This document shows positions 42,077-62,499 of a stretch of 64,000 nt of DNA, one piece after another; the stretch's first letter is position 1, and each line of letters starts with the position of its first letter. Position numbers and translations under genes: made by a program. The notes beneath the pieces were generated by a model. The model saw nothing but the letters and a program-made list of their open reading frames with translations, searched no databases and was not told the origin of the DNA. Where the stretch lies: assembly GCA_016215105.1 (NCBI GenBank), contig JACRLJ010000052.1, positions 3,847 to 67,846 on the forward strand, read 5' to 3'. The DNA comes from Candidatus Hydrogenedentota bacterium (GTDB lineage: Bacteria; Hydrogenedentota; Hydrogenedentia; Hydrogenedentales; SLHB01).

Positions 42077-42465
42077 GTTATCTTTCCCCGGTCGGGCACG
42101 GCTTGAAGGTAGTGGACAACTTGCGCCATGAATGTATCGGGATTGATAGGCTTTTCGATGTAGCCATTGCACCCCGCTTCGATTGCCCGCTCCCGGTCTC
42201 CAGCCATGGCAAATGAAGTCAGCGCCACGATGGGAACGTTGCCTAGACTGGAATTCGTTCGCAGGCGTCTCGCGACCGCGTATCCGTCCATGATGGGCAA
42301 CTGGATGTCCAGAAGGATGAGGTCCAGCGACGACCTCGCCGCGATACCGATACCTTCCTGGCCTTCCCGCGCTTGGAGAACTTCATAGCCGTTGGTCTCC
42401 AACAAGAAGGTGACGAGATAAAGATTCTGTTCGTTATCCTCGATATAGAGAATCCGTCCACTCAT
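42073..42465 (-). CDS. Single-domain response regulator (DivK/CheY-like)
   Basis: ILYIEDNEQN..DLILLDIQLP..ALTS..YIEKPI. Confidence 0.93.
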   Translation of the reverse strand: MSGRILYIEDNEQNLYLVTFLLETNGYEVLQAREGQEGIGIAARSSLDLILLDIQLPIMDGYAVARRLRTNSSLGNVPIVALTSFAMAGDRERAIEAGCNGYIEKPINPDTFMAQVVHYLQAVPDRGKIT

Positions 42466-45400: not shown

Positions 45401-46880
45401 TTGCCCACAGCGTTCCCGAGTGATCTTCCATCAAAGAGCTTGGACTGTCTATCGGGTGCTCGCGAATGCTGGACCATGCGCCGTCGGTGAACTCATAGAT
45501 GTGTCTAGAGCCGCACAGGAACAAGCGCCCCGTGGGACCGCAATACACACTGGGAGTACTTTCAAGATGTGGCAGAGTCAGTGAGCGTAACGCAGTACTC
45601 GAACCGAGGGATACTTCGACCAATCGTTCCTTGAACAACACCCAGCACCTATCATCACGCGGGCGGCTCATGCCGAGGCACACTTCTCCCCTTTCACCCA
45701 AGGAAACGAGGCTTTTCCAGTGATTCTCTTCCCAGCGGTATATCGTTCCCCCGATATCGACGGTTACCGGCGAGAACTCTGGTTCGGCATAGATGCAGAT
45801 CGAAACGATGGACGCCCCTTTTTCGTCGGAGTTGCACAAACTCCAGACGGTATCCGTTATCCGGCATGCGCCGGACCGTGTACCCACCCAGACTTCGTTA
45901 GGACCAGTGCATAGTATCGAGTTCACCAAACCGACGTCGGCCTTGGAATTTGGACCTACGCTTCGCCATCCCCATCGCCCGTCATAAGAGCGCAAGCCCT
46001 TATCCGTTCCGACCCATAGGGTATCCCTGGTTCCAGCTCCTAGAGACGTGATGGTCTCGCCCAACCCGTGAATCACCGTTCGTTGGCCGTTCTCGTACCG
46101 AACCAAGTCCCTGCCCCCCGCGGCCCAGACGGCGCCGTCGGTAGTCCGAGTCAGAGTTAGCCCATGCATCCGTTCCTCGGCTTCCTCCCACACGAGGCGC
46201 CAATCATCCGCGCCATACGTCACGATGCCCACGTCACGAAGACCTACCCAGACTTCTTTGTTTGGCAGTGGAAGCACATCTGTAATGCTGGGGCTACTGG
46301 CGAAGCGCTCCAATCCCGGCACAACGGACCACACCCCGTCGGGATCCGCGCCCGGCGCCGTAAGTGAAAAAGGGGCATACTGCGGTGAACTTGGAGCGAA
46401 TTGAACAATTTGCGATCTGGCCGTGATAAACCAGATGGCGCCGTTGGATAGCTGGCAAGTTTGAAAGATGGACGGTCTATCCAGTCCCGGAAGTCCAGTA
46501 CTGACGATGCGCCATTGCCCCGCGTTGAAATAGGCGATACCCTCTGAAGAACCGCACCAGAGTCGGTTTCCAACGTCAAGGAGCAATGCCCGAACGTCGT
46601 TTGTGGGCAACCCGCTCTCTTCTTGATACGAAGTCCACGTATAGCCATCCGCCCGTGCGATTCCCCGTCCCCAGCATGCGAACCAGACATTTCCATCGGG
46701 CGTCTTCGCGATGCTTCGAACGACCTCTCCCGCCAGACCGTCGCTCGGCAAGAATACCTGGACGTGTTTGGAAAAGTCGGCCTGAATAGCTGATTCCGCG
46801 CCGAGACTAACTTGGGAAATGAGTTGCGCCAAGAGTAACACTAGGCCGAAGCGAAGCATACTGCTGTCTTCAGGGTGCAT
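42462..46880 (-). CDS. Sensor histidine kinase: extracellular beta-propeller (Reg_prop/Y_Y_Y-like), TM, three PAS domains, HisKA, HATPase
   Basis: DGLAGEVVRSIAKTPDGNVWF repeats; FLATMSHELRTPL; NLLSNAIKFT; DTGIGI; GTGLGL. Confidence 0.93.
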   Translation of the reverse strand: MHPEDSSMLRFGLVLLLAQLISQVSLGAESAIQADFSKHVQVFLPSDGLAGEVVRSIAKTPDGNVWFACWGRGIARADGYTWTSYQEESGLPTNDVRALLLDVGNRLWCGSSEGIAYFNAGQWRIVSTGLPGLDRPSIFQTCQLSNGAIWFITARSQIVQFAPSSPQYAPFSLTAPGADPDGVWSVVPGLERFASSPSITDVLPLPNKEVWVGLRDVGIVTYGADDWRLVWEEAEERMHGLTLTRTTDGAVWAAGGRDLVRYENGQRTVIHGLGETITSLGAGTRDTLWVGTDKGLRSYDGRWGWRSVGPNSKADVGLVNSILCTGPNEVWVGTRSGACRITDTVWSLCNSDEKGASIVSICIYAEPEFSPVTVDIGGTIYRWEENHWKSLVSLGERGEVCLGMSRPRDDRCWVLFKERLVEVSLGSSTALRSLTLPHLESTPSVYCGPTGRLFLCGSRHIYEFTDGAWSSIREHPIDSPSSLMEDHSGTLWAIWPEDAERCKGGIWTSLGEGPLAKQSRSLEVITEAQDDTVLLGIADLGILSFSDDHPRRVCSFEGASFSQLSALLQCQNGMIWTGHRGSGISSYMDGLWLDYGPESGIAEGRVRYLGEDPEGTVWAFVAGAGPFRYRPNPGCPAPKIEHSPKSVAPGDRGIFKFSGKDKWNLTEDADLRFSWRILLEKDSLAASSWSAWSPWSAETVVVAPRLAPDRYALQLRAVNLDRNTQVVPSEVSFEVLGPFWSSPAFYLPVGGLALVVVALSAAWVRKHRLLAESETKHRTILDTISEIIFSLSPEAIIAYVSPGIERVLGYCPSDVVGQPVSNLMDPRDRARFQDHLANLARQGDLSDEYRFVARCGVIQWLRVSCHASFEDGRVVDIKGVATDITNRKNAEETLRTTLENLEYLVAERTREVTEANTSMREEIQMRARTESALRESESKYRNLVENVPQRIYIKDCELRYVSCNERFAADLKLSPDSIAGKSDFDFFPIELAENYRKDDQAVITSGQLAEVEEIYLLDGEERWIHTTKAPVRNSAGTVIGVLGIFWDITDQKRAEDELARYRGHLEEMVRARTAELDNINAQLQRELVERRLAEKKLQEYADTIHDLYDHAPCGYHSLDGDGTFIHINDTELRWLGYSREEIEQNKKFGDIMTAESRKAFCTSFSEFKERGWAKDVEFTIVRKDGSLLPVVVNSTAIKNSAGDYVMSRTTVFDLTERKRLEEKLRTTMSELALAKDEAEAADRLKSAFLATMSHELRTPLNSIIGFAGILHQELVGPLNPEQKKQLGMVRDSSGHLLSLINDILDISKIEAGQLHISMDSFDLRALIDRVIQTTRPLAEKKKLALDAIVNPKVSCVTSDRRRVEQVLLNLLSNAIKFTERGSIRTECEPRDGHVIIQIVDTGIGIRPENMELLFKPFQQVDSLISRQYEGTGLGLSICKKLVERLGGKIWAESEWGRGTVVSFTIPIGGGTS

Positions 46881-47284: not shown

Positions 47285-47331
47285 CGTGGTGGAGGTGAGG
47301 GGGATCGAACCCCTGACCTCTGCATTGCGAA
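47285..47331 (-). repeat. att site: duplicated 3' half of tRNA-Ala
   Basis: Identical 47 bp to 62422-62468 (CGTGGTGGAGGTGAGG...TGCATTGCGAA). Confidence 0.97.
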
Positions 47332-47428: not shown

Positions 47429-47483
47429 TTGACTTCTTAGCAAATATCCGAATATAATACGCCTTGGTCACAGCGTGGTCACA
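47429..47483 (+). promoter_or_regulatory. Integrase promoter and putative arm-type integrase binding sites
   Basis: TTGACT-18nt-TATAAT; TGGTCACA at 47465 and 47476. Confidence 0.7.
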
Positions 47484-47513
47484 ATCCAACCCCAACCACT
47501 GAGGGAGGGAACC

Positions 47514-48839
47514 ATGAAAGCAAAACTGGTACGCCGAACGGTTGACGCCCTAAAGCCCGGCAAGGAGCGGTATGACGTGTTTGACTCTGCGCTGCCCGGC
47601 TTCAAGTTGCGGGTCTCGCCGACCGGGAAGATGGTCTACCTGCTTCGGTTCAAGAGCCCCAACACTGGGTTGTGGACCCAGATGACCATTGGGGATGCGG
47701 CCGGCATAACCCCGGAGCAGGCGCGCAACGCGGCCAAGGCCTCACTTCGTATCGTTGCAGAGGGGCGCGACCCATTGGTTGAGAAGCGCGCGAAGCACGC
47801 CGAAGCTGCGGCCATGCCAACTCTCGGCGAATTCCTGGACGGAGAGTACGGGGTCGAGGTAAAGCATTCACGTAAGTCCGGCGAGGCCACCGTGGCGCGG
47901 TTGAAATCGACATTTAAGTCCTTCCTCAAGCGCCCTCTGAGCGGGATAGTACTGCGCGATGTTGAGAAGTGGCGCGTTGACCGGCTTAAGGACGGACGGG
48001 CGGTTACCACCGTCAACCGCGACGCGGCGGCGTTAAGAGCGTGTCTTTCCAAAGCGGTGGACCGGGACATTCTGCCGGCGCACCCGCTGCGCAAGTTCAA
48101 GCTGATGAAGATTGACCGGGCGCCGAAGGTCCGGTACTTGGGGACGATGACTGTTGACGGCAAAGAGGTGAGCGAGGAAGAAGCGTTGATGAAGGCCCTG
48201 GACACCCGCGAGGCCGAAATGGCCAACAAACGCGAGAACTACAACGTCTGGGCGCAGGAACGGGACTACCCGGAGCGGCCAAATCTGACGCACGCTGCGT
48301 TTTCCGACTACCTCAAACCGTTGGTTCTGACGCTGGTCCACACGGGCATGCGCCGCGGGGAAGCGTTCAATCTGGAATGGAAGGATGTGGATCTCGAGGC
48401 CCTACACCCGGCGCTGACGGTTCGTGGCGAATCTGCGAAGTCCGGGACGACCCGCGTTATCCCGCTGAACACCGTCGCGGTGGACGTCTTGAAGAAGTGG
48501 CGAAAACAAACGGGTGGCGTGGGGCTGGTGTTCAGGAGCCCCAAGGGCGGCGGCCGTATGGACAACGTTCAAACCGCATGGGAATCCCTCTTGACGGACG
48601 CGGGCATAAAGAACTTCCGCCTTCACGACTTGCGCCATACATTCGCGTCCAAGTTGGTCATGGCGGGCGTAGATCTGAACACCGTGCGGGAACTGTTGGG
48701 CCACGGCAGCATCGCCATGACTTTGAGGTACGCGCACCTGGGGCCACAGACGAAGGCGCTGGCCGTCGAGAAGATCGTAGCGTCGCGCAAGGCCGGTACA
48801 GTGATACCATTCACGGAGCCAAAGAAGCAGAATCGCTAG
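47514..48839 (+). CDS. int: Tyrosine integrase with N-terminal arm-DNA-binding domain
   Basis: VFDSALPGFKLRVSPTG; HTGMRRGE; KSG; HDLRHTFAS; LLGHGSIAMTLRYAH. Confidence 0.95.
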   Translation: MKAKLVRRTVDALKPGKERYDVFDSALPGFKLRVSPTGKMVYLLRFKSPNTGLWTQMTIGDAAGITPEQARNAAKASLRIVAEGRDPLVEKRAKHAEAAAMPTLGEFLDGEYGVEVKHSRKSGEATVARLKSTFKSFLKRPLSGIVLRDVEKWRVDRLKDGRAVTTVNRDAAALRACLSKAVDRDILPAHPLRKFKLMKIDRAPKVRYLGTMTVDGKEVSEEEALMKALDTREAEMANKRENYNVWAQERDYPERPNLTHAAFSDYLKPLVLTLVHTGMRRGEAFNLEWKDVDLEALHPALTVRGESAKSGTTRVIPLNTVAVDVLKKWRKQTGGVGLVFRSPKGGGRMDNVQTAWESLLTDAGIKNFRLHDLRHTFASKLVMAGVDLNTVRELLGHGSIAMTLRYAHLGPQTKALAVEKIVASRKAGTVIPFTEPKKQNR

Positions 48840-49847: not shown

Positions 49848-50060
49848 ATGACGACCGAACGAAACGAACTTCCCGACACGCTCCGAATGGTTTCGCCTAG
49901 CGACGCCGCGAAGATCTTGAACGTGGCGCCAATCACCCTCGCCAAGTGGCGATGCACCAAAACAGGACCACAGATACCATATACGAAATACGGCCGCTAT
50001 GTGCGCTATAGTATTAGAGACCTAGTTCAGTTTCTTGAGTCCAACAAGGTCACGGGCTGA
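49848..50060 (+). CDS. Excisionase / AlpA-like HTH_17 protein
   Basis: SPSDAAKILNVAPITLAKWR..IPYTKYGRYVRYSIRDLVQFL. Confidence 0.85.
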   Translation: MTTERNELPDTLRMVSPSDAAKILNVAPITLAKWRCTKTGPQIPYTKYGRYVRYSIRDLVQFLESNKVTG

Positions 50061-50071
50061 CGGGGGTTCGC

Positions 50072-52276
50072 ATGACCACGGCAACGCGAACACCCTACAC
50101 GCCGGAAGAGCTACTCGAACACTTTGAACGGGCGAAGCCACAAGGCCCAAACCGCTGGCGCGTGCTTTGTCCAGTTCACGTCGACACCGACCCAAGCTTG
50201 GACGTCAACTACAAAGACGGCAAATATCTCTTTGCCTGTCGTTCCCACGGCTGTTCATTCAAGGACATCGCCGCCGCGGCAGGACTTGAGACTGAACGAT
50301 GTTTCCCCGACACAGGTAAGGGCCGGGACAACGGCCACTACAAAACCAAGCCGAAGGCCACGGCGGACGAATACCCCCCGCCGTGGGAGTGGAAGGACAG
50401 AGGATTACTGGAAGCCGTCTTTCCGTATCAGAACGAAGAAGGCGTCACTCAGTTCGAGGTGTTGCGCGGCAAGCCCTGGAAGGGTTTCAAAAAACAGCAT
50501 CGGCAACGCCGGGCGGACGGTAAGTGGACAACGGACGGGACACGCCCACTGCCTTTCATGCTTCCAGAACTCCTCGAGGACGTGGCCATGGGCCGGACTA
50601 TCTTTGTTGTCGAGGGGGAAAAGAAAGTCCTTGCGTTGCGCCAGTGGGGCTTTGCGGCGACGTGTTGCGCGGGCGGCGCAAAGAAATGGAAGCCCGAACA
50701 CGCTGAATACCTGACCGGCGCAAACGTCGTGATTTTCCCCGACAACGACAGGCCGGGCCGCGAACATGCCGAAGCGGTGGCCAAGAGCTTGAGCGGGAAG
50801 GCTTCAAGTATTCACGTGGTGGCGTTGCCTGGTTTGCCGGAGAAAGGTGACATTATAGATTGGCAAGCTGCGGGGCATACTCGCGAGGAGCTTCAGGCGC
50901 TGGTTGCTGCTGCCCCGGAGTGGATTCCCGTCGAGACTGCCACCACGCGCAGTGAACGCCCCACGTTAGCCAACTACCGGATCGAACCGACCATGGACGA
51001 ATCTGGCAAGCCGCGGAAAGTCGCGGTTCCCTTGCCCGAAATCACACGCGCGTTACTCGACGTGGCGGACGGGTGGCCGAAGCGCATCAACGATCGCCTA
51101 TTCGTGGATACAGGCGGCGCGATTCGTCACCTGTCTACGCCGGACTCGCTATTCGCCTGGATTGGCGAAGGGCACACGGTGGCGTGGCCTGGGGGAACGG
51201 ACGCGGACGGAAACACGTTGACACCCAAGGCGGAGTTTTTCGAGTCGCTACGGGCCAGCGTGGACGCGTTTCAGTCTGTTGAGGAATTCCCACACGAACC
51301 CGAGATCGCTGGTTCCTACTATGCCTGGAAGATTCTCACAAACTACAAGGCGGACGGAGAGGCGTTGAACGGGCTTCTGGCCTTCTTCGACAATGCCGAG
51401 ACACCGGCTGACCGTGTTCTGATCCGTGCAATGTTTCTGACTCCGGCATGGGGTGGTCTTGCCGGATTGCGGCCCGCATTCATCATCACGGCGCCAGACC
51501 GGGGTTACGGTAAGACCACACTTGCTGACGCTGTAGGTTCACTCTATGGCGGAGCGATTGACCTCGAAGCCGACGAAGCCCGCGACGAACGATTGAAGTC
51601 GAGGCTCTTGGGGGACGCGGCGCTATCGAAGAGGGTCCTTCGGGTGGATAACGTGAAGACAAGCCAGTCTTCAACGCAACTTGAGGCGCTCATAACATCA
51701 AGTGTCATCAGCGGCCACCGCCTCTATGCCGGAGAGACGGCCCGGCCCAACTACCTGACGACGATTGTCACCGGCAATACCGTTCGGCTGTCTCGTGACC
51801 TGGCAGACCGGGCTTTCGTCATTCGACTGGCCAAACCCAAGGCGAGGCCGGGTTGGAGTGAGAACCTCGGGGCGTACCTGGAGAGTAGACGCGATCACAT
51901 TCTCGCGGACATAGTGGCGGAACTGCGCAAACCCGTGGCGGCAACCGAAGCACGCGACCGGTGGCAGTCCTGGACGTCCAACGTCCTGGCGCGGTGTACG
52001 CCGGGCGCGGCGGCAATAGTGGCGGCGAACCAAGCCCGGCGCAACGAATGCGATGACGATCTCGAAGAGGCCAGCTTGATACTTGATGCACTTCGGAGCC
52101 GGGGCCTTAGCTTCTTAACTGCGGCGGTAGCCACAACGGTGGTAAACGAGGCGCTACACGTCCAATGGACTACGAACAAGGTCACTCGACGCATTCAATC
52201 CCACGTCGAGGCCGGAAGACTATCAGGGATAGAACGGTATAACACCGGAAATACGCGAGGCTGGAATGTTGCCTGA
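50072..52276 (+). CDS. Primase-helicase: Zn finger, TOPRIM and P-loop ATPase
   Basis: CPVHVD..PSL..CRSHGC; FVVEGEK..FPDNDRPG..KGDIIDW; APDRGYGKT Walker A; LRVDN; TGN. Confidence 0.85.
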   Translation: MTTATRTPYTPEELLEHFERAKPQGPNRWRVLCPVHVDTDPSLDVNYKDGKYLFACRSHGCSFKDIAAAAGLETERCFPDTGKGRDNGHYKTKPKATADEYPPPWEWKDRGLLEAVFPYQNEEGVTQFEVLRGKPWKGFKKQHRQRRADGKWTTDGTRPLPFMLPELLEDVAMGRTIFVVEGEKKVLALRQWGFAATCCAGGAKKWKPEHAEYLTGANVVIFPDNDRPGREHAEAVAKSLSGKASSIHVVALPGLPEKGDIIDWQAAGHTREELQALVAAAPEWIPVETATTRSERPTLANYRIEPTMDESGKPRKVAVPLPEITRALLDVADGWPKRINDRLFVDTGGAIRHLSTPDSLFAWIGEGHTVAWPGGTDADGNTLTPKAEFFESLRASVDAFQSVEEFPHEPEIAGSYYAWKILTNYKADGEALNGLLAFFDNAETPADRVLIRAMFLTPAWGGLAGLRPAFIITAPDRGYGKTTLADAVGSLYGGAIDLEADEARDERLKSRLLGDAALSKRVLRVDNVKTSQSSTQLEALITSSVISGHRLYAGETARPNYLTTIVTGNTVRLSRDLADRAFVIRLAKPKARPGWSENLGAYLESRRDHILADIVAELRKPVAATEARDRWQSWTSNVLARCTPGAAAIVAANQARRNECDDDLEEASLILDALRSRGLSFLTAAVATTVVNEALHVQWTTNKVTRRIQSHVEAGRLSGIERYNTGNTRGWNVA

Positions 52277-52455: not shown

Positions 52456-52893
52456 ATGAGTGACGTAGATCCTAGCGACATCGCTTTGTGGCCCGGAATG
52501 CCACGGCGCGCGGCGGACTTGGAGCGCGACGCCGCGGCGGCGCTAGGCGGCCGGCGAGTTATTCGACAGGACCTGTTTGAGACTGCGGTTGATGTCCGGA
52601 TACCGGACTTCCCGGACCTCTCCGTGGACTGCAAGTACCGAAAGACCCTTGCGCATCATAAGCTCATGAAAACAACGCGACAGAAGTACGGCGGGACTCC
52701 GCTGTTGGTTACGCGGACAAAAGAGGAAGGGGAGACCTTCGCGACCTTGCCGTTGAAGGTCCTGGGCCACCTACTCGACATTGCCCGGGCGGCCGGCCAA
52801 ACGAAACTCGATGGCGACGGGCGGATTACCGACCAGGCTGGGCTGCTACTTCTCGGGCGGCACGACGCGCCAAGGCGCGCGCGCGAAATCTGA
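52456..52893 (+). CDS. Putative PD-(D/E)XK nuclease (resolvase-like)
   Basis: LERDAA..VDVRIPDFPDLSVDCK..PLLV pattern. Confidence 0.45.
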   Translation: MSDVDPSDIALWPGMPRRAADLERDAAAALGGRRVIRQDLFETAVDVRIPDFPDLSVDCKYRKTLAHHKLMKTTRQKYGGTPLLVTRTKEEGETFATLPLKVLGHLLDIARAAGQTKLDGDGRITDQAGLLLLGRHDAPRRAREI

Positions 52894-53227
52894 GTCCAAT
52901 CGAAGGGCGCGACCGGCGGCGGCGTTCCTGGGCCGCTTCGTCAAACCCAATCGGCTCTTTCGGCGGCAGGTGCGGGGCAATATCGAGCAAGGCTGACGCC
53001 ACGACGGCACGCTCCTGTTGTGACTCAAGGTAGGCGAGGTAAATGCGACCGCGAGGGGAACGAATGAGGAGCGATACCTGATGCGGCGTCATCGGAACGC
53101 CGGTCTCGCGCTGCACACGTGAGGCCGCGGCGGCGCATGCATGGCCAGACGCAACTGCCCGCAGGCAGCTTCGTTCATGCGGTTTCAGCTTTTTGGCCGC
53201 GTTTGGGAAGCCATTGCCGTCCATCAT
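52826..53227 (-). CDS. Hypothetical protein, HTH-like
   Basis: LKPHERSCLRAVASGHACAAAA..VSLLIRSP; RBS-like AGGGG. Confidence 0.4.
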   Translation of the reverse strand: MMDGNGFPNAAKKLKPHERSCLRAVASGHACAAAASRVQRETGVPMTPHQVSLLIRSPRGRIYLAYLESQQERAVVASALLDIAPHLPPKEPIGFDEAAQERRRRSRPSIGLRFRARALARRAAREVAAQPGR

Positions 53228-53383
53228 ATGTCGATACCCCTACCATAGCCTTGGCCATCCGCCCCCGCCCTGCAATGATCTGATCATACCGGAGGCGGTT
53301 ATAGATAGTCAAGTACGTCTCTATTACAAGGGCTGAAGGTGAAGCGTGATGGTTGGTCTACGACGTAGTGGTATACTAAGCCT

Positions 53384-53746
53384 ATGGGCGAAACAAAATG
53401 GTGCATATGCCCCGTGTGTGGGTTCGAGTCCGTCGGCAAGGTAGGGTGGCGCTGCTGGCGCGGGGAGGGGAACAAGACGCGCATGACGGACGATCACAAA
53501 CAATGCCCCGGCGTGTGGGTTGAGTCGCCAAACCCGGTACCAGATAGCGAACGGCGGGCGATAGAGCAGGACCGGCTACGTACGCGCGAGTTGACGTTCA
53601 AGCCGACTAAGCGTCGCCGGCGTGACCCGGAGGACATTGCTGCTGGTGGTATTCGCTCTGCCTTTGGTCGAGAGTGGCTGGGCGTCTTGCGCGCCCACCG
53701 TCGTTCGTCAACAAGTACAAGAACGGCGAACGCAGACTTGACGTAA
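53384..53746 (+). CDS. Small Cys-rich (Zn-ribbon-like) hypothetical protein
   Basis: CICPVCG..C..C; the 3' part may be read-through into a junction. Confidence 0.4.
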   Translation: MGETKWCICPVCGFESVGKVGWRCWRGEGNKTRMTDDHKQCPGVWVESPNPVPDSERRAIEQDRLRTRELTFKPTKRRRRDPEDIAAGGIRSAFGREWLGVLRAHRRSSTSTRTANADLT

Positions 53747-53817
53747 TCGAGTTCCTCCAGGTGGCCAAGGCCATCGGCATCGACCCCGTCAAGTTCCTCA
53801 AGAAGCTGGACAAGTAG
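53674..53817 (+). pseudogene. N-terminally truncated XRE-family HTH gene
   Basis: VAGRLARPPSFVNKYKNGERRLDVIEFLQVAKAIGIDPVKFLKKLDK*. Confidence 0.7.
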
Positions 53818-54013
53818 GCTTCACCGAATCCTGTACTACCTCGCCGGAAATGAATGGTTGTACCGTTCCAACTATCGACCGGCGGCAGACTTACAAGTGA
53901 GTCCCAGCCACTCGCGATCCGGATGGAAGATTAGTATATACTTGATAGCGAAGTGACAGCCCGTGATTGAATCAGTCCTCATGGTATTATGGGCACAGAG
54001 GAGCACGACCCAC

Positions 54014-54763
54014 ATGCCAAGTAATCGCCGTGAATTCGAGTTTAGGATAAAAGCGTTTACGCTGCATACAATTCCAATGAGTAGACTGGCAGAATACTTG
54101 GCGGATCTTGCGGCGCTGCTTGGTGAGCAAAAGAGTGTGCACTTTGTACGCCTTAAGGCGGGAAGCGTCAATATTGTCCATTCCATTGAGCCGGAGGCGG
54201 AGCCAAAAGTTCGCGCCAGGATTCGAACAGCAAAATCTGATGATTGGACAAATGAGGCGACAAGGGCCGTAAGAGCCATTGATAAGCGGCTTGCGGAAGA
54301 CAACGCTTCGGGCGCGCTCGTCGGGCCTGGCGGGAAGAACATCATCAAGTTCCCTGGTAAGGATCGGTTTTCTGAGCCGTTGTATGGTCCATTCAACCAG
54401 CCCGGTTTCGTGGAAGGAATTCCGATCTGCATTGGAGGCAAGAACGACCCAGTCCCCATTCACCTTGAGGAACCGGGCCACCAGGCCCAAGTGTGCGCTG
54501 CGAGTCGGGGCCTAGCCCTACGAATCGCCCCGTACATCTTCACTGCCATCATTCGCGCGGAGGGAATAGGGCGGTGGCGTCGGGATTGCGATGGAGTGTG
54601 GATCCGCGATAAGTTCACGATCCAAGACTTTAGGGTTCTGGATAGGACACCCCTCACTGATAGTGTCCAGCAGCTTCGAGCGGCCTCGAAAGGGATTGGC
54701 GAATTGGAGAATCCCCTGGAAACAATTCAGAGCCTGAGGAATGGGGAACAAGTTACTCATTAG
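54014..54763 (+). CDS. Hypothetical protein, partner of the downstream PIN nuclease
   Basis: RBS GAGGAG; IPMSRLAEYLADLAALLG..VHFVRLKAGS; beta-rich C-terminal half. Confidence 0.75.
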   Translation: MPSNRREFEFRIKAFTLHTIPMSRLAEYLADLAALLGEQKSVHFVRLKAGSVNIVHSIEPEAEPKVRARIRTAKSDDWTNEATRAVRAIDKRLAEDNASGALVGPGGKNIIKFPGKDRFSEPLYGPFNQPGFVEGIPICIGGKNDPVPIHLEEPGHQAQVCAASRGLALRIAPYIFTAIIRAEGIGRWRRDCDGVWIRDKFTIQDFRVLDRTPLTDSVQQLRAASKGIGELENPLETIQSLRNGEQVTH

Positions 54764-54772
54764 GGGAGCGCA

Positions 54773-55321
54773 ATGGTCACATTCGACGCTGACTTTCTAT
54801 GCTTTCTTCTCCGGGAAGACCCCGGAGTCGTCCTCGACCCCACTTCGGGCCAGCCGGTTGAAAGGGCGAAAGAAAAAATCGAGCATCTCATATACACGCT
54901 CGAAAAGGCGCGGGACAAAATCTTGATTCCAGCGCCGGCATTGAGCGAAATCCTATGTCTGTGTGGCCACGAAATGGACGAGGTGGTTGACGTTCTCCTT
55001 CGTAACTACGGGTTCGAAATAGCGCCGTTCGATATCATGGCGGCCATCGAGGCTGCTATTATTACGGGCCGAGCAAAAAGTAGGGGATCAAAAAAAGGCG
55101 CATCAAATGAAACGTGGGCAAAAGTAAAATTCGATCGTCAGATCATCGCTATAACAAAAACCCGCCGAGCCGAAACGATTTACTCGAACGACACCACGCT
55201 CAAGAAATCAGCCGAGCGGGAGAATATCAGGACCGTGTCGGTTTGGGAGCTACCGGATGCGCCCCCCAAGCAAGCGGAGTTTTTCGATGATGACGATGCT
55301 GTAGTCTCAGAGCCTGATTGA
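54773..55321 (+). CDS. PIN-domain ribonuclease
   Basis: TFDADFL, PAPALSE, KVKFDRQIIAI, IYSND acidic quartet. Confidence 0.75.
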   Translation: MVTFDADFLCFLLREDPGVVLDPTSGQPVERAKEKIEHLIYTLEKARDKILIPAPALSEILCLCGHEMDEVVDVLLRNYGFEIAPFDIMAAIEAAIITGRAKSRGSKKGASNETWAKVKFDRQIIAITKTRRAETIYSNDTTLKKSAERENIRTVSVWELPDAPPKQAEFFDDDDAVVSEPD

Positions 55322-55427
55322 CAATACGTCACTTTAGCGCCACCGCTGGGACCGTTGACACCAAATACGGTCGGCGTTCCTACCTCATCATAAGCCATTT
55401 CACCGTTAGTTGCCTGTCGCCGCGCCG

Positions 55428-56162
55428 TTACTGTTGGTTGCGCGCGGCGAATTCGTTCCAGAACTCCAACGTGGCGTCGAAGTACTCCTCGAGATCCTTG
55501 TCTGTGACGTAGATGTCCTCGCCACCCGCCGGACGCCCAATGCGTAACGCGTTCGGGGCGTTGAAAAAAGTATCTTCGCTCAGGCCTGGAGCCGTGAACA
55601 GTTCCGGTCGAATTGCGTGAAGCTTGAGAGCTGAGACGCCTGGCCCGTGTTTTACCGCGTTGGCCACGAGCCGCAATTCTTTCACCTTCGACCACGCGGC
55701 GACTTGGTCAAGGCAGAGTCCGCCGGCGGCTAACCGTTCCTCAAACTCCTCGATCCGGTACAGTTTCTTGTGCACTTTCGGGTCATTGAGGGCGTCGTTC
55801 TCTTCATGTATCGACAGCACCCGTCGGCGGTGGAAACAAAGCATCTGCTGTTCGAGAAGGTGCCACAACATCACCGTTCCCATGTTAAGGACCGCCTGAC
55901 GTACACGAGTGAGGCGTTCGTACAGTTCAAAACCCTGTTCTTGCGCCCACTCCGCCCACCAACTTCCATCATCGTTACCGTCTGACGGTCGCGACATCGC
56001 CCATTCCCACATTGCCTGCTGGTGCGCGGTGGCTTCTTCCTCGGCGTCTGGAAGGGAGGGCAACATCTTCGTCAACAGGGCATCGCGCAGACTCTTAATC
56101 TCCTTCGGATAGTTTTCTGCTATCCATGGCCCCCATAACTTACCATCGAGATGCAGCGCCAT
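55428..56162 (-). CDS. Hypothetical protein with HEPN-like motif, coupled to hsdS
   Basis: LWHLLE..ELRLVANAVKHG; starts 2 nt after the hsdS stop; RBS AGGAG. Confidence 0.6.
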   Translation of the reverse strand: MALHLDGKLWGPWIAENYPKEIKSLRDALLTKMLPSLPDAEEEATAHQQAMWEWAMSRPSDGNDDGSWWAEWAQEQGFELYERLTRVRQAVLNMGTVMLWHLLEQQMLCFHRRRVLSIHEENDALNDPKVHKKLYRIEEFEERLAAGGLCLDQVAAWSKVKELRLVANAVKHGPGVSALKLHAIRPELFTAPGLSEDTFFNAPNALRIGRPAGGEDIYVTDKDLEEYFDATLEFWNEFAARNQQ

Positions 56163-56164
56163 GG

Positions 56165-57727
56165 TCAGTTTGCTCCTGCCCCGGACGTGAGTTCGGCCAC
56201 GACGGCCTCCATGAGCTTCTCGGCGGTGGCGCGGGAGGCGGCGAGCTGGGCTTCCAGTTGGTCCACCAGGGCCATCAGTTGGTCCACCTTGGCGACAATG
56301 CGGCGCTGTTCGGCTAGGGGTGGGACGGGTGCGACATATCTTGTGACGCTATTTGCTGACAGGTTTGGTTGAGCCGATCCATTGTCGAAGCGGGTGATCA
56401 GTTCTCGCCCAAGGGGGCTAATCAAGTAGTAGTACGTATAGCGGGGCGTGAGATTACAGCCTAGACGGATAATCACCAATGACGACGCTACAGCCCCCTC
56501 GATGAACTGATCGATGATTGCTGTCTTTCCCAGCGTGGCACCGCGCAAACAGTAAACAAGGTCGTCTTTTTGGACCTTTCCGTTCCTGAGGGAATCATAT
56601 TTTGCGCGAGTGAGATAGTGCATGGAAGTGAGTGACAGTGTTCCACCCGGCTGAATATGCCCGGTATTTATGAACGGTACCCCTGTTGGAACGTATTCGT
56701 TCTTGTTCGGGTAGTTCTTCCCTCGGTCTCCATTGATGAACTCCGCCTCAGACCCGAGCCTGCTCCAGCGCCAAGATCTGGGTAACTCAAAAGGGATTTC
56801 CTTTTCGGCAATTGGCTCAAAGCGCCGAAGACGTTTCGCTGTCGAAGGCACTTCCGCCGGTTCATCCTGCGGGTCCTGGGGGACGAGTTTGCCCTGGACG
56901 GCGAGGGTGAGGATGGACTTGCGGAGGTCGGCGGGCGGAATGGTATAGGACTTGTGGAAGATGAGGTTGAGGTTGGCCGGGGTAGGCGCGTCAGCAAAGG
57001 TGGCCAGAGACGCGCGGGCGAGTGCGGCGTGCCGGGTCACACGTTCCTGTTGCTGCGCCTCCAGGCGGTCACATAGCGCCATCAACTCGTCCACCTTGGC
57101 CACTATGCGCTTCTGCTCTGCGAGGGGCGGGACTACTACTACCAACTCCCGGATGTCGCCGAGCGAAACGTTCGGCATCGCTCCTCCCCTGGCCCTAGCT
57201 TTTATCTTATTTGAGACGAAGGAGTCGAGTTGCATCTTCAAGAAAGAGGTGTCAAATGACGCAGCCACACCACGGATTATCGCGAGCGCTTGGTTAGTGT
57301 TTGCGGGAACATCTTTAGCGTTAACGATACAGGTTTTCCCAATTGTTCCCGCGATGGAAAAGAGTACGTCGCCACTTTCGAGCTTGGAGCGCTTAAGAAA
57401 CTCGTGAGTGGCAGCCGAAATGAACTGTACTATCGAGGAATGTTGAATGCTCCCGTCATTGATGTTCTCCACTTTGATGAACGGGATTCCGGACGGCTCA
57501 TATTGGTGTCCGTATGACGTCGGTGTTGCGCCCTTTGTGATGAGTGATGCAATGCTACCTAGTGACTGCTTCGGCCAGGCAACGCTTTTCGAGCTAACTC
57601 GATCGCGCGGCGAGTCCAGTAACTTATTACCGATGGCCAAATCAAGAATCAGCTCCCGCATCTTCCCGACCGCGTTGGGCGCGTCGGCTAACTCATCGAA
57701 CTTCTCGAAAAACGTCTCCAGCGTCAT
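56165..57727 (-). CDS. hsdS: Type I restriction-modification specificity subunit
   Basis: Two TRDs, each ending PPLAEQ(K/R)RIVAKVD(E/Q)LMAL; ILTLAVQGKLVPQDP; PFELPRSWRW. Confidence 0.95.
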   Translation of the reverse strand: MTLETFFEKFDELADAPNAVGKMRELILDLAIGNKLLDSPRDRVSSKSVAWPKQSLGSIASLITKGATPTSYGHQYEPSGIPFIKVENINDGSIQHSSIVQFISAATHEFLKRSKLESGDVLFSIAGTIGKTCIVNAKDVPANTNQALAIIRGVAASFDTSFLKMQLDSFVSNKIKARARGGAMPNVSLGDIRELVVVVPPLAEQKRIVAKVDELMALCDRLEAQQQERVTRHAALARASLATFADAPTPANLNLIFHKSYTIPPADLRKSILTLAVQGKLVPQDPQDEPAEVPSTAKRLRRFEPIAEKEIPFELPRSWRWSRLGSEAEFINGDRGKNYPNKNEYVPTGVPFINTGHIQPGGTLSLTSMHYLTRAKYDSLRNGKVQKDDLVYCLRGATLGKTAIIDQFIEGAVASSLVIIRLGCNLTPRYTYYYLISPLGRELITRFDNGSAQPNLSANSVTRYVAPVPPLAEQRRIVAKVDQLMALVDQLEAQLAASRATAEKLMEAVVAELTSGAGAN

Positions 57728-59205
57728 TCGTTGGTTCCGGCGGTGGCAGTGAGGGCGTGATGGAGTTCCTGTTTCAACGCGGCCCGAGTCTCCGCGATTT
57801 GGGCGAGGAGTTTTTCGTATTCCGGCAGGAGGTGGTCCACATCACCCGGACCCGTGTCGGGGTTGTGCGGGTTCTTGAGGTCGAGGTTGTAGTTGCCCGC
57901 CTTGATCTGGTCGATGGAGACACACCAGGCCTGTTCATTCTCTTTGCGCTTGGTATAGGCGCCCGCCTTGTTCGGTTTACCCCACCATTCACGCTCGGCC
58001 TCAAACTCCTCAATACGGATGGGCTTGCCCTTGTTGTAGCTCTTGGCGCCGGGAGGGTAGGGGTGCTCGTAGTACCAGACCTCGGTGGTGGGCTGGCCCT
58101 TGGTGAAGAAGAGGAGGTTGGTGCGAATGCCGGTGTACGGGTTGAATACGCCGTTGGGCAGGCGGACGATGGTGTGCAGGTTGCAGTCCGCCAACAGCGC
58201 CTCCTTGATGCGCGTCTTGACGCCTTCCCCGAAGAGTGTGCCGTCCGGCAAGACCAGTCCGGCCCGGCCGCCGGGCTTGAGGATTTTCATGAGGAGTACC
58301 AGGAAGAGGTCGGCGGTTTCGCGGGTACGGAACTCGGCGGGGTAGTTGGACTCGATGCCGTCCTCTTCCATGCCACCGAAAGGCGGATTGGTGACGATCA
58401 CGTCTACGCGTTCCTTGGGTGACCAATCGCGCAACGGGCGGGCTAGGGTATTGTCGTGCCGTACATTTGACGGCACGTCGATACCGTGCAGCAGTAGGTT
58501 GGTCATGCACAGGACGTGCGGCAGGTGTTTCTTTTCGATACCGGTGAAACACTCCTGGATGGTGTGCTCGTCGGTCTCGGTCTTAGCCTGTTTGCGCAAG
58601 TGCTCGATAGTGCAGGTGAGGAAGCCGCCGGTGCCGCAAGCCGGGTCGAGGACGGTCTCGCCCAGACGCGGATTGACCTGCTCCACGATGAACTGCGTGA
58701 CGGCGCGCGGCGTATAAAACTCGCCTGCGTTTCCCGCGGACTGAAGGTCCTTCAGCAGCTTCTCGTAGATGTCGCCGAACATGTGGCGGTCGTCGGAGGC
58801 GTTGAAGTCAATCCCGTTAATCTTGTTGATGACCTGGCGCATGAGGGTGCCGTTCTTCATGTAGTTGTTGGCATCCTCGAAGGTCATACGGATGAGGCCG
58901 GCGATCTTGTCTGCGCCGCCGGTCAGGGATTTGAGCTTGGGCAGAAGCGTGTTGTTGACGAAGTCGAGCAGGGCATCGCCGGTGATGCCCTCGTCGTCCG
59001 AGGCCCAGGCTGACCACCGCAGGTGTCGCGGTAGCGGAGACTTATAGTTGTCACGGAGGAGTTCGGTTTCCTTTTCGCGGTCGTCGAAGATCTTGAGGAA
59101 GAACATCCAGCCGAGTTGTTCGAGGCGCTGGGCGTCGCCGTAGGTCCCGGCGTCCTTGCGCATGATGTCCTGGATGGTCTTGACGATATTGGAGACGTTG
59201 GGCAT
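57724..59205 (-). CDS. hsdM: Type I RM N6-adenine methyltransferase
   Basis: AGEFYTPR, DPACGTGG, NPPF. Confidence 0.97.
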   Translation of the reverse strand: MPNVSNIVKTIQDIMRKDAGTYGDAQRLEQLGWMFFLKIFDDREKETELLRDNYKSPLPRHLRWSAWASDDEGITGDALLDFVNNTLLPKLKSLTGGADKIAGLIRMTFEDANNYMKNGTLMRQVINKINGIDFNASDDRHMFGDIYEKLLKDLQSAGNAGEFYTPRAVTQFIVEQVNPRLGETVLDPACGTGGFLTCTIEHLRKQAKTETDEHTIQECFTGIEKKHLPHVLCMTNLLLHGIDVPSNVRHDNTLARPLRDWSPKERVDVIVTNPPFGGMEEDGIESNYPAEFRTRETADLFLVLLMKILKPGGRAGLVLPDGTLFGEGVKTRIKEALLADCNLHTIVRLPNGVFNPYTGIRTNLLFFTKGQPTTEVWYYEHPYPPGAKSYNKGKPIRIEEFEAEREWWGKPNKAGAYTKRKENEQAWCVSIDQIKAGNYNLDLKNPHNPDTGPGDVDHLLPEYEKLLAQIAETRAALKQELHHALTATAGTNE

Positions 59206-59208
59206 GGG

Positions 59209-61578
59209 TTAGGCGGCTTTCTGGTAAAGGGCGGTTTCAAGCTCGCGAACGGCGGCGAGGTACTCTTGCTTGCCGCCGAAGATGCTGATGATTTCAACCG
59301 GTGTACCGAACGCGGTGAGCGGGTCCACCTTGAGGATTTCGAGGGACTCGACGCTCTTGATACCGCTGTCGGCGTACTTCTGGAGCAGGGCGTCAAGCAC
59401 GGCGCGGGCCGCGTCGCCATACTTGCCGAAGATGTTGCGCTTCTTCACGCGCTCCGCGCGTTCTTTCCGGGTCAGCGGCGGTTGGTCGAAGGCGACATGG
59501 CAAATAAGGTCGAAGGCATCGTAGTCGCGCCCCACCTGCTCGGCCAGTTCGTCGAGGAACACCCCCTTGGCCGCCAGTTCGTCCAAGATGGCCTGTTTCC
59601 TCTCCGCGTCGTTCCAGACCGTGAGGAACTCGTCCAGTGAGGCAAAGGCGCCGAGAACGGTTTTTCGGGAATAGTCCTTGAGGGACTCCGTGATGAGCTT
59701 CCCGTTCTCGTCCATGTACTGAACGCGCTCGGTGACCACGAAGACGTTTACGTCGTTCACCACGTACTTGGTTGGGCGGGAGCCCGGAGTCCCACCGTCA
59801 ATAGGCGGGTCGTAATCGATAATGACATCAACGGGCGGCTCGTCGTCGCGTCCCTCGGGCGGTTCATCCGGAGGGACTGGCGTCTCCTCGGGGCCTGGCT
59901 CGTAAATCTGAACGGGGTCGCCGTCAAAGGCGGGGTCCGCGAATAAGGCGGTGGCCCGCTTGAAGTCCATGATGGTGAAGAAGAACTTGTTGTAGTCCTC
60001 GTTGATGCGGGTGCCCCGGCCAATGATCTGCTTGAACTCCGTCATAGAGTTGATGCGCTTGTCCAGAACAATCAAGTGGCAGGTCTGCGCATCGACCCCG
60101 GTAGACATCAACTGCGAGGTCGTGGCGATGACCGGGTAGGTGGATTCCGGGTCAATGAAGTTGTCGAGTTGGGCCTTGCCTTCCTCGTTGTCGCCGGTGA
60201 TGCGCATGATGTACTTGTTGTTAGCGGCGGCGAGGTCGGGGTTAGCGTTGACCATGGCCTGGCGCATGCGCTCCGCGTGGTCAATGTTCTCGCAGAAGAT
60301 TATGGTCTTGGCGTAGCGGTCCGTGGCCATGAGGAACTCGGTGACCTTGGCCGCGACTAGTTCGGTGCGCTTTTCCAGGATCAGGTTCCTGTCGAAGTCC
60401 CGGTCGTTGTACTCGCGGTCCTCGATGACCTGGCCATATTTGTCCACTTGTCCCGCGTCCGGACGCCAGCCGTCCAGATCCTTGTCCAGCCCGATACGGA
60501 CGACCTTGTAGGGTGCGAGGAAGCCGTCGGAGATGCCCTGCCGCAAGGAGTAGGTGTAGAGCGGGTCGCCGAAATACTCGATGTTCGATACGTCCTTGGT
60601 TTCCTTGGGCGTGGCAGTGAGGCCAATTTGCGTGGCGGAGGAGAAGTATTCGAGAATTTTGCGCCAGTTTGCGTCGGCGGCGGCGCTACCGCGATGGCAC
60701 TCGTCGATGATGACCAGATCAAAAAAGTCCGGCGAGAACTGCTTGTAGATGTTCTGCTCTTCCTCGACGCCAGTCACGGCTTGGTAGAGGCAGAGGTAGA
60801 TCTCGAAGGCTTTATCCACGGTACGGTTGGTGATCTTGGTCATCGCCTTGCCGAAAGGTTTGAAATCGTTGGTCTTGGTCTGGTCGGCGAGGATGTTCCG
60901 GTCAACGAGAAAGAGAATGCGTTTGTTGGCGCCCGACTTCCACAGCCGCCAAATAATCTGGAACGCGGTGTAGGTCTTGCCCGTTCCGGTGGCCATTACG
61001 AGGAGAATACGATTCTCGCCGCGCGCGATGGCCTCGACGGTGCGGTTGATGGCGATGAGCTGGTAGTACCGCGGCGTCTTGCCGGAGCCGTCGTCGTGGT
61101 AATCCTGCGTGGCTACCACGTCCTGGCTGGCGTTGAAGCCCTTGGCTGCCCGGTAGCGCGCCCAGAGGTCGTCCGGCGCCGGGAATTGGTCCAGAGGGAT
61201 TTCCTTCTCGACCGCGCCGCCGGTTCCAGTCCGGTCGTGTTCGAGGAAGGCGTCGCCGTTGGAACTGTACGCGAACGGAACATCCAGGATTTCGGCGTAT
61301 TCGAGGGCCTGTTGCATTCCCGCGCCGACGGTGTGGTTGTTGTCCTTGGCCTCCACGACGGCGATGGGGATGCCGGGCTTGTAGTAGAGGAGGTAGTCGG
61401 CTTTCTTGGCCTCACCGCGCTTCACCGACTTGCCGCGTACGATGACCCGGCCCTTGGTGAAGTAGACTTCCTCGCGCAACTGGGTCATCACGTTCCACTT
61501 GGAGCAGTCCGCGCCAACCAATGCAGGCGTGATGAACTTCGTGCGAATGTCGGTCTCGGTGAGTTCCTTCTTGTTCAT
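59209..61578 (-). CDS. hsdR: Type I restriction subunit R (EcoAI / type IB-like)
   Basis: MNKKELTETDIRTKFITPAL; ADY..VEAK; MATGTGKT; DECHR; QIIGRGTR; PPLTRKERA C-terminus. Confidence 0.97.
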   Translation of the reverse strand: MNKKELTETDIRTKFITPALVGADCSKWNVMTQLREEVYFTKGRVIVRGKSVKRGEAKKADYLLYYKPGIPIAVVEAKDNNHTVGAGMQQALEYAEILDVPFAYSSNGDAFLEHDRTGTGGAVEKEIPLDQFPAPDDLWARYRAAKGFNASQDVVATQDYHDDGSGKTPRYYQLIAINRTVEAIARGENRILLVMATGTGKTYTAFQIIWRLWKSGANKRILFLVDRNILADQTKTNDFKPFGKAMTKITNRTVDKAFEIYLCLYQAVTGVEEEQNIYKQFSPDFFDLVIIDECHRGSAAADANWRKILEYFSSATQIGLTATPKETKDVSNIEYFGDPLYTYSLRQGISDGFLAPYKVVRIGLDKDLDGWRPDAGQVDKYGQVIEDREYNDRDFDRNLILEKRTELVAAKVTEFLMATDRYAKTIIFCENIDHAERMRQAMVNANPDLAAANNKYIMRITGDNEEGKAQLDNFIDPESTYPVIATTSQLMSTGVDAQTCHLIVLDKRINSMTEFKQIIGRGTRINEDYNKFFFTIMDFKRATALFADPAFDGDPVQIYEPGPEETPVPPDEPPEGRDDEPPVDVIIDYDPPIDGGTPGSRPTKYVVNDVNVFVVTERVQYMDENGKLITESLKDYSRKTVLGAFASLDEFLTVWNDAERKQAILDELAAKGVFLDELAEQVGRDYDAFDLICHVAFDQPPLTRKERAERVKKRNIFGKYGDAARAVLDALLQKYADSGIKSVESLEILKVDPLTAFGTPVEIISIFGGKQEYLAAVRELETALYQKAA

Positions 61579-62335
61579 GCCACCCCTTCCGTGAATGTCC
61601 ATAATGCCCGTTATGGTCAGGGAGCACACGGTATCGTAAACGACGACAAGAGATCAACGCCGCATCCCGAGTTACACGGCGAAAAATTTTGAGAGCGGGT
61701 TGCCGGATCATACCGGCGGGCGGCGCGATCCCCCTTCGGGGGGCCTCCTTGTCCCCGATGGTCGATGCCGCGGACTGCGGGTGGAGCGACGCCGTGGCCA
61801 GGCCCGGTCGAGGGAGTCGATAGCATGGAGGACTTGCACATGGTGGAGGGCGAGAGGCTTACTCGTGGGCATCAAGACTGTCCTGACCGTGCGGAACGGC
61901 GCCAGCTATGCCCTTATCTCCGTCAGGAAGGCGCCTACGCGGCCCGTCACGGCGCGAACAGCGCCTCAGTCGAGGAAAGGGATTCGGAATTGCCTCGGGC
62001 ATTCTGGCGCGCCGGCTGCCTGGACACGCCCTTTGACGCTCCCACCAGATTGGTCTGTACTGGTTTCGGGAGTCTCCGAGTTAACCGGAGATTCTACGCC
62101 CAAATCGGTCGTAAGCTGAGTCACGCCATCGCGCGTGGTCGTTTCGGACGTTGTCGCGGGAGCCGATTCGGACGCTTTTTCTTCCGCATCGTTACCGCCG
62201 CGAGTTCTTTGCGGCCCGTCCTGAGTTCCTCAAGGTAGAACGTTTCCCCTGATATTCCTGCACGCCCGCGCAAGTTTGCGTTGCGCTCGACCTTCCGCCA
62301 CCGCCACACCCAAAAACCACGAAATCGACACGCGC

Positions 62336-62354: not shown

Positions 62355-62423
62355 AGTGTCTACAGAAATAGTAAAGGCCAACGGTAAGCTTTTCGCTAGT
62401 CCATTGGCCTATAAGTGCTTACG

Positions 62424-62499
62424 TGGTGGAGGTGAGGGGGATCGAACCCCTGACCTCTGCATTGCGAACGCAGCGCTCTCCCAGCTGAGCTACACCCCC
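62424..62499 (-). tRNA. tRNA-Ala (anticodon CGC)
   Basis: GGGGGTGTAGCTCAGCTGGGAGAGCGCTGCGTTCGCAATGCAGAGGTCAGGGGTTCGATCCCCCTCACCTCCACCA, 76 nt, G3:U70 pair, CCA end. Confidence 0.98.

Follow-up and report, generated by a model that had tools for sequence, protein, structure and literature searches.

The window analysed here is a stretch of 64,000 nt from contig JACRLJ010000052.1 of a Candidatus Hydrogenedentota bacterium, and the subject of this account is a pair of genes within it that we term A and B (Table 1). A first-pass annotation made from the sequence alone had described two co-oriented genes 9 nt apart, converging on the operon of a type I restriction-modification (RM) system, and the coordinates confirm this; both genes are on the + strand, with 9 nt between the stop codon of A and the start of B. 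The open frame around gene A spans 53963-54763, and initiation at the GTG at 53963 would lengthen the protein by 17 residues. Translation of A more likely starts at the ATG at 54014, since the N-termini of 27 aligned homologues fall close to it, to within a few residues; GAGGAG is found 10 nt 5′ of this ATG. The Shine-Dalgarno-like GGGAG of B abuts the stop codon of A, so that translational coupling of the two genes is plausible. No promoters and no terminators were returned by a scan of 53700-55500. Each of the two proteins has many database relatives, on which basis A and B are real genes and not chance open reading frames (ORFs). The window's own genome contains a single copy of the pair.

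Protein B is a nuclease of the PIN family. Its AlphaFold2 (AF2) model has a predicted local distance difference test score (pLDDT) of 91.7 and a predicted template-modelling (TM) score (pTM) of 0.84, and its best Foldseek matches are FitB (2h1c and 2bsq) and VapC toxins, with E values of 1e-5 and a target TM score of ~0.7. The acidic residues D5, E59, D121 and D140 are all present, and are invariant in 28/28 aligned homologues. B is thus a VapC/FitB-like PIN fold with an intact acidic tetrad; that the PIN acidic residues look intact had been noted in the first-pass annotation. A database search returned 88 relatives of B; PF01850 is found in many of the homologues, and B itself matches phrog_21691, a PHROG of unknown function, with an E value of 1.5e-24. 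A profile search of the Protein Data Bank (PDB) with B gave matches at the level of chance only (E ~0.5). B is unnamed in NCBIfam, and matches 0 families of PADLOC-DB v2.0.0 at E≤1. The PADLOC matches of the 28 homologues are scattered and weak, to ZorA2 in four (E 5e-5) and to CARF_PIN in two (E 0.017).

Protein A belongs to a large family without a name. The database search returned 169 relatives, each of ~250 amino acids (aa) and all annotated as 'hypothetical' (best E 6.5e-94), and a profile search reached at least 1558 representative clusters (50% identity) at E≤1e-3, and 558 at E≤1e-30. A matches phrog_19868, also a PHROG of unknown function, with an E value of 3e-32. There is no match to A in Pfam, NCBIfam or PADLOC-DB v2.0.0 (0 families at E≤1 in PADLOC), and Pfam searches with 27 A homologues taken singly gave nothing consistent. 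The PDB profile search with A stayed at the level of chance (E ~0.5). In the ESM Atlas the whole of A matched only unnamed 'hypothetical' clusters, while residues 1-122 had no usable match among the named clusters, and Foldseek searches against viral models gave low-TM matches only, to uncharacterised phage proteins and to single-stranded DNA-binding proteins (SSBs).

In the model of A (pLDDT 84.2, pTM 0.53) an alpha/beta domain at residues ~1-120 is followed by a beta-barrel at ~124-208, and then by two C-terminal helices and a tail at ~209-244 that are of low confidence. The matches of the barrel in Foldseek are weak (best E 1.1e-3), and all are to the oligonucleotide/oligosaccharide-binding (OB) domains of Stn1, RPA, SSB or tRNA synthetases. 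VIA, an independent all-against-all aligner, superimposes residues ~125-212 on the Rim1 SSB, RPA and MCM-N with a Z score of 8.5 and a root-mean-square deviation of 3.2-4.5 over 79-83 residues; the sequence identity between the domain and its structural matches is 4-18%. As modelled, residues ~125-212 of A are an OB fold. We claim only the fold for A and no function, because a Z score of ~8 is common for models that have no clear match. Part of the OB face is predicted to lie on the PIN domain (see below). The first-pass annotation had described a partner of ~250 aa having no obvious helix-turn-helix (HTH) or ribbon-helix-helix (RHH) domain and a beta-rich, possibly OB-like C-terminal half, and this description agrees with the 0 Pfam families found and with the model.

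The two genes are conserved as a pair. The set of loci anchored on A comprises 87 loci (70 from genomes and 17 viral), of which 82 have an A of 200 aa or more; in 76 of these a full A is followed by 600 nt or more of sequence, which makes them testable. B is found directly 3′ of A as a full gene in 63/76 and as a partial gene in 3/76, with no adjacent B in 10/76; the median A-B gap is 15 nt (tblastn, 62 loci). At viral loci anchored on B, A is directly 5′ of B in 58/58; these loci hold 53 distinct A sequences, and nine of their contigs are common to the A-anchored viral set. The homologues therefore co-occur as the two-gene module proposed at the outset. The identities of A and B to the window proteins co-vary across loci (Pearson 0.70, Spearman 0.44, n=57), which lends weak support to the pairing, the sequences being related and not independent. 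Among 135 Hydrogenedentota genomes B occurs in four, three of which have a full A upstream while the fourth (G009) has fragments of both genes, and the pair is present in 3/41 related genomes, the window's own included. The distribution is sporadic. A 467-aa open frame in the genome G014 that could be taken for a fused A-B protein results from upstream read-through, and A and B are separate genes there.

Prediction of the complex of A with B gave an interaction prediction score from aligned errors (ipSAE) of 0.84 (0.83, 0.84 and 0.84 in the individual runs), against 0.06 for the best control. In calibration the ipSAE mark was reached by 58/80 solved complexes and by 2/110 mismatched pairs. The runs have at least 89% of their contacts in common, with a partner pLDDT of at least 83. 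The predicted interface on B comprises residues 59-60 and 139-140, i.e. including E59 and D140, together with 6-7 and 120 that are next to D5 and D121. On A it comprises residues 209-244, a segment that is poorly ordered in the monomer and includes the nearly invariant R242 and G244, and the OB residues 122-134, 154-155, 179, 188, 190, 195-196 and 207. The tail and the OB face of A would therefore cover the catalytic residues of B, which is the geometry of an active-site inhibitor. The tails of VapB and FitA are known to cover the active site of the toxin. The prediction supports direct binding of A to B.

A confident predicted interface would also be formed if A and B were an obligate heteromeric nuclease, in which A is the OB subunit that recruits the substrate and the enzyme serves the carrier element, for example by processing DNA or RNA when the phage or IS1595 replicates, transposes or is regulated. 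Single-stranded nucleic acid is a common ligand of OB folds, and A is large, folded and highly conserved, all of which would suit such a subunit. However, the predicted interface covers the catalytic residues E59 and D140 as an inhibitor would, and the closest structural relatives of B are the toxins of toxin-antitoxin (TA) systems. We consider such an enzyme to be unlikely, and the pattern of gene loss and the occurrence of the pair in transposons both bear on it further.

A without an intact B is found at ~13/76 of the A-anchored loci. Partial B genes are present at loci L013, L038, L049 and L066, that of L066 being a 64-aa PIN stub only. At L028 (6747-10493) B lies 3.8 kb away, displaced by inserted DNA and with its N-terminus missing, and at L049 (6597-8213) B is split in two by inserted DNA. 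In both L028 and L049 A is intact or nearly so while the PIN gene is broken or displaced, so that decay here has begun with the toxin. The 58 viral loci include no B that lacks A, and of the four B-containing genomes in the 135-genome phylum set three have a full A upstream while G009 has fragments of both genes. Since A can outlive B and B was not seen without A in these samples, the pattern is that predicted for a toxin-antidote pair, and it fits an antidote better than the subunit of an enzyme. Taken with the complex model, this one-sided loss supports the antitoxin role that the first-pass annotation had given to the partner. The broken copies (both genes in G009, and the four partial B genes) could also be taken to mean that A and B are no functional unit in the window, but decayed remnants or chance ORFs. 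Yet both window genes are full length with all of the invariant residues of the alignments, each has a Shine-Dalgarno-like sequence, and both structural models are of high confidence, so that we regard this as highly improbable.

An IS1595-family transposase (PF12762 and PF12760) is the only recurrent neighbour in the genome loci. Of the 87 loci, 11 have it as a long ORF (of 305-322 aa in nine) directly upstream of A and co-oriented with it; another five have fragments, and two further A-B loci have IS1595 transposase copies nearby. Terminal inverted repeats (IRs) of 20-50 nt bracket the transposase, A and B in five of the nine loci examined; none were found around the three genes in L048, L022, L079 and L032, and no target-site duplications are evident at the five IR-bounded elements. 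Such tight synteny, with IRs enclosing all three genes, would fit A and B as subunits of an enzyme serving the transposon, but most copies (~70/87) have no adjacent transposase, and no inverted repeats there.

The left repeat of the IS1595-type elements, with its sigma-70-like -35 region, contains ATTATATACTTGACA, and a hexamer of -10 type comes 17 nt after this. The invariant core TATACTTGA is also found in the window at 53937-53945, ~70 nt before the ATG of A. The pair in the window may on this evidence descend from an IS1595-type element or share its promoter, and the sequence at 53933-53947 could be a promoter or what is left of an element of this type. The window copy was considered as an IS1595 element itself and rejected, there being no transposase within 6 kb, no flanking inverted repeat and no right-hand repeat. 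Transposase-less copies were likewise considered as non-autonomous elements, and in the search for bounding inverted repeats no locus rose above its shuffles except L021. In L021 a 23-nt inverted repeat (5575-5597 / 7390-7412) flanks a transposase-less A-B pair; it resembles the 3′ ends of tRNA (TTCGAATCC...CCA), and may come from a pair of tRNA genes in opposite orientation or from att sites.

In the Pseudomonas phages Pacha_bin_1 and Ostro a homologue of A (36% identity) stands just after cI and is followed by a PIN gene. The A homologue of Pacha_bin_1 (L001, PQ533669.1; 4983-5723) appears to be mis-annotated. A single 740-nt ORF matches A residues 8-209, whereas the record has a 270-nt coding sequence on the same strand over the end of A only and a coding sequence on the opposite strand over its start. 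The 135 ORFs that flank the pair at 46 distinct viral loci include 18 with HTH_3, 14 with Peptidase_S24, five with YdaS, four with P22_Cro and two with N peptide. Exclusion genes of temperate phages, lambda rexAB among them, occupy this slot adjacent to cI.

A further explanation, proposed in the first-pass annotation, is that the pair is a dedicated abortive-infection system, i.e. a special case of TA in which A senses a phage product and releases an RNA-degrading PIN. The OB fold or the N-terminal domain of A would then recognise single-stranded DNA, a replication intermediate or a phage protein, in keeping with its resemblance to the OB domains of SSB, RPA and MCM. The homologue beside cI in the two Pseudomonas phages, the cI/Cro-type regulators that flank the viral loci, and the place of the window pair on a mobile island, with type I RM genes as neighbours, all agree with this. 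On the other hand neither protein matches PADLOC, and in the complex model the PIN domain takes up much of the conserved OB face, which would then not be free for a ligand. The chromosomal neighbours described below also argue against it, being mostly housekeeping genes. We therefore view a dedicated abortive-infection system as possible, but only tentatively so.

A-B is present in six plasmid records. In a 21-kb Pleomorphomonas plasmid it adjoins XerD and is near Soj, and in a Methylobacterium plasmid it is near a recombinase. On chromosomes, housekeeping genes such as GlnD, Mur ligases, penicillin-binding proteins, aconitase and chaperonin make up most of the 97 nearest-neighbour ORFs (49 loci). 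In Pfam the most frequent match among the same 97 ORFs is the IS1595 transposase (8-9), with RM-type methylases in two and RmuC in one; about 3-5 have PADLOC matches at E≤1e-10, to RM-like, RmuC or TatD models. Enrichment of the homologues in defence islands, which had been raised in the first-pass annotation, was accordingly not seen among these neighbours, in an analysis using crude ORF calls and no background rate. A-B behaves like a small selfish unit, carried on a tRNA-Ala island, temperate phages, plasmids and IS1595-type transposons.

In the window the setting as island cargo proposed in the first-pass annotation is upheld, in that 47-nt repeats at tRNA-Ala bound 15.2 kb containing the integrase, primase, A-B and RM genes. 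The repeat is direct and exact (47285-47331 = 62422-62468). The core of P4-like satellites and phage-inducible chromosomal islands (PICI-like) consists of an integrase, an AlpA-type regulator and a primase, to which genes for hijacking a helper phage are added. The island has an integrase, an HTH_17 gene, a Toprim/DUF5906 gene and att repeats. Residues ~7-301 of the Toprim/DUF5906 protein resemble phage DNA primase/helicase genes with 31-37% identity. Several of the island ORFs have no family match of any kind, and on its integrase, regulator and primase genes the island is a candidate phage satellite.

Table 1. Features of the A-B locus and its island in the window, and IS1595-type elements that carry the pair at other loci.
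Feature	Position or length	Strand	Remarks
Gene A	54014-54763	+	249 aa; unnamed family (phrog_19868); putative antitoxin
Gene B	54773-55321	+	182 aa; VapC/FitB-like PIN nuclease (phrog_21691); putative toxin
Shine-Dalgarno-like GGGAG for B	54764-54768	+	Read from sequence; 4 nt before the ATG of B
Motif GTATATACTTGAT	53933-53947	+	Shares invariant core TATACTTGA with the IS1595-type left inverted repeat
Left repeat copy, att-like	47285-47331		Duplicates the 3′ part of tRNA-Ala; island boundary
Tyrosine integrase	47475-48839	+	Phage_integrase E 1.5e-27; Arm-DNA-bind_3 E 1.6e-12
HTH_17 (AlpA-like) small regulator	49848-50060	+	PF12728 E 1.5e-7
Toprim/DUF5906 primase-helicase-like protein	50072-52276	+	734 aa; weak Toprim_2, Toprim_3 and DUF5906 matches
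244-aa ORF	55428-56162	-	No Pfam or PADLOC family
hsdS	56165-57727	-	Type I RM operon
hsdM	57724-59205	-	Type I RM operon
hsdR	59209-61629	-	Type I RM operon
tRNA-Ala (cgc)	62424-62499	-	3′ part (62422-62468) = right repeat copy
IR-bounded IS1595-A-B element, L004	2425 bp
IR-bounded IS1595-A-B element, L057	2800 bp
IR-bounded IS1595-A-B element, L012	2819 bp
IR-bounded IS1595-A-B element, L062	2771 bp
IR-bounded IS1595-A-B element, L045	3002 bp

The A-B pair on the + strand converges with a 244-aa ORF, hsdS, hsdM and hsdR on the - strand. The start of the 244-aa ORF is 2 nt past the stop codon of hsdS, and for this reason it is placed in one operon with the RM genes, apparently as its fourth member; it converges on B and is treated as context of the A-B module. 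Its homologues are on Burkholderia and Paraburkholderia plasmids (34-36% identity, all 'hypothetical'), and in pBN4 the homologue stands after a gene of the PAPS-reductase family and a DUF72 gene. Three small island ORFs without a family match lie at 52456-53746, encoding 145 aa (+), 133 aa (-) and 120 aa (+), the last having CxxC pairs close to its N-terminus. An ORF of 1472 aa at 42462-46880 (-) is immediately outside the left boundary of the island.

Our preferred reading is that A-B is a VapBC-like type II TA module in which A binds and neutralises a toxic PIN protein, to which we give a probability of roughly 0.6. The data establish the order and spacing of the genes, the conserved pairing of A with B, their folds and the acidic tetrad of B; the A-B interface is supported by a predicted model, and the toxicity of B, its neutralisation by A, an RNA target and the biological role are inferred. 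A would be translated first, from the same transcript as B, and would then bind B directly. B would be a Mg-dependent PIN endonuclease, and probably a ribonuclease by analogy with VapC and FitB. The C-terminal helices and tail of A (~209-244), together with one face of the OB fold, would block the groove that holds D5, E59, D121 and D140. If A were lost or shut off, B would be released and the cell would arrest. Such arrest would favour maintenance of the carrier element, and might in addition abort the infection when a competing phage enters. In such a scheme an alpha/beta domain of ~120 aa and an OB fold would have taken the place of the usual small DNA-binding domain of the antitoxin, and the C-terminal tail that covers the toxin would have been kept.

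The plasmid, insertion sequence (IS) and scattered chromosomal contexts fit a role in stabilisation of the carrier, and the slot adjacent to cI and the RM neighbour fit the exclusion of competing phages. An anti-phage role for A-B is plausible.

Several points weigh against a TA module of this kind. A stable A-B interface would fit an obligate two-subunit enzyme equally well. The alignments used for the complex were built by the authors and the calibration is only rough, and since VapBC-like complexes have already been solved, part of the score may reflect likeness to these. The conserved aromatic and basic residues of the OB fold, W188, R190 and W196, sit in the predicted interface, so that the OB fold may bind neither nucleic acid nor a phage cue. 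No DNA-binding domain that could serve autoregulation was recognised in A, using Pfam on A and its homologues and the ESM Atlas, though its N-terminal domain may contain a cryptic one. In its size and its well-defined fold (pLDDT 84) A also differs from the VapB antitoxins, which are small and labile. B scores 22.8 bits against a Pfam PIN cut-off of 23.6 (E 1.5e-4). Lastly, the observation that B is never found without A covers viral contigs and one phylum only. With these points taken into account, A-B is real, intact, conserved and so far unnamed, and its mechanism is probably that of an ordinary PIN TA system.

A broader proposal is that A founds a new and very widespread class of sensor-antitoxins, in which a signal of foreign DNA that invades or replicates displaces the OB fold and the N-terminal domain from the PIN protein, making the pair a stand-alone abortive-infection system. 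Candidate signals would be single-stranded nucleic acid, or a phage SSB or recombinase. Phages would then keep the module in a rex-like slot beside cI, and IS1595 would have captured it as portable cargo. We think this doubtful.

Comparison with VapBC and FitAB places the preferred TA reading among known systems. As in these, the toxin has the PIN fold and its four acidic residues are conserved, the antitoxin gene is upstream in the same operon at a distance of a few nt, a C-terminal segment of the antitoxin lies over the active-site groove (in A, according to the prediction), and the distribution is sporadic and mobile. The antitoxins of VapBC are of ~70-100 aa and bind DNA through AbrB, RHH, Phd or HTH domains, whereas A has 249 aa and, by Pfam, none of these; it has instead an unclassified N-terminal alpha/beta domain and the OB fold. 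B is ~40 residues longer than a typical VapC (182 aa against 130-145 aa in the structural matches) and has an acidic C-terminal tail. Unlike VapBC, neither A nor B has a sequence relative in the PDB or a name in NCBIfam. We set A-B apart from VapBC and FitAB and do not count it as a member, because it lacks the small AbrB, RHH, Phd or HTH antitoxin. The view that this is not a standard VapBC and not a named system is thus sustained, there being no system match in PADLOC, NCBIfam or Pfam.

TA pairs are known as passengers of other transposons. According to a survey of the Tn3 family, 39 of 190 elements carry type II TA pairs, with PIN and PIN_3 among the toxins and RHH_6, Phd/YefM, AbrB, HTH_37, ParD and MNT among the antitoxins (PMC7157771). 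These resemble A-B in the IS1595 elements in having the TA pair inside a transposon by the transposition genes; they differ both in the transposon family, A-B being with the DDE transposase of IS1595, and in their antitoxins. IS copies of the IS1595 family that have passenger genes have been termed 'transporter IS', a concept cited in PMC3129680. So defined, the five IR-bounded elements (L004, L012, L045, L057 and L062; 2425-3002 bp) conform, while most A-B copies lie outside such elements. In the NetFlax paper PIN toxins are paired with PanA, RHH and other antitoxins, and 'OB-fold' is absent from its text, supplementary tables aside (PMC10440598).

No description of the A-B pair, or of a TA passenger in IS1595, was found in the literature searched, although the supplements of the surveys and the 2009 account of IS1595 might list them. 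The A-B pairs of phages are like lambda rexAB in being a two-gene cassette beside cI/cro. The mechanism proposed for A-B is nuclease-based, and no relation in sequence or fold to rexAB is expected.

PIN proteins of the VapC type are the most numerous of TA toxins, and to our knowledge the known antitoxins of VapC are small proteins with a DNA-binding domain. If the TA reading is correct, A would be a new OB-fold antitoxin architecture, and would provide an annotation for ~1500 clusters and for two PHROGs of 'unknown function'. The pair would become a testable candidate for an exclusion function that prophages encode beside cI, in temperate phages of Pseudomonas and in others, and the hitch-hiking of TA systems in transposons would be extended from Tn3 to IS1595-type elements. 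Should A be a sensor-antitoxin, the IS1595 family would have in A-B its first described passenger of a defence or TA kind, and if its OB fold senses a phage cue it would offer a simple model for how a TA system is triggered.

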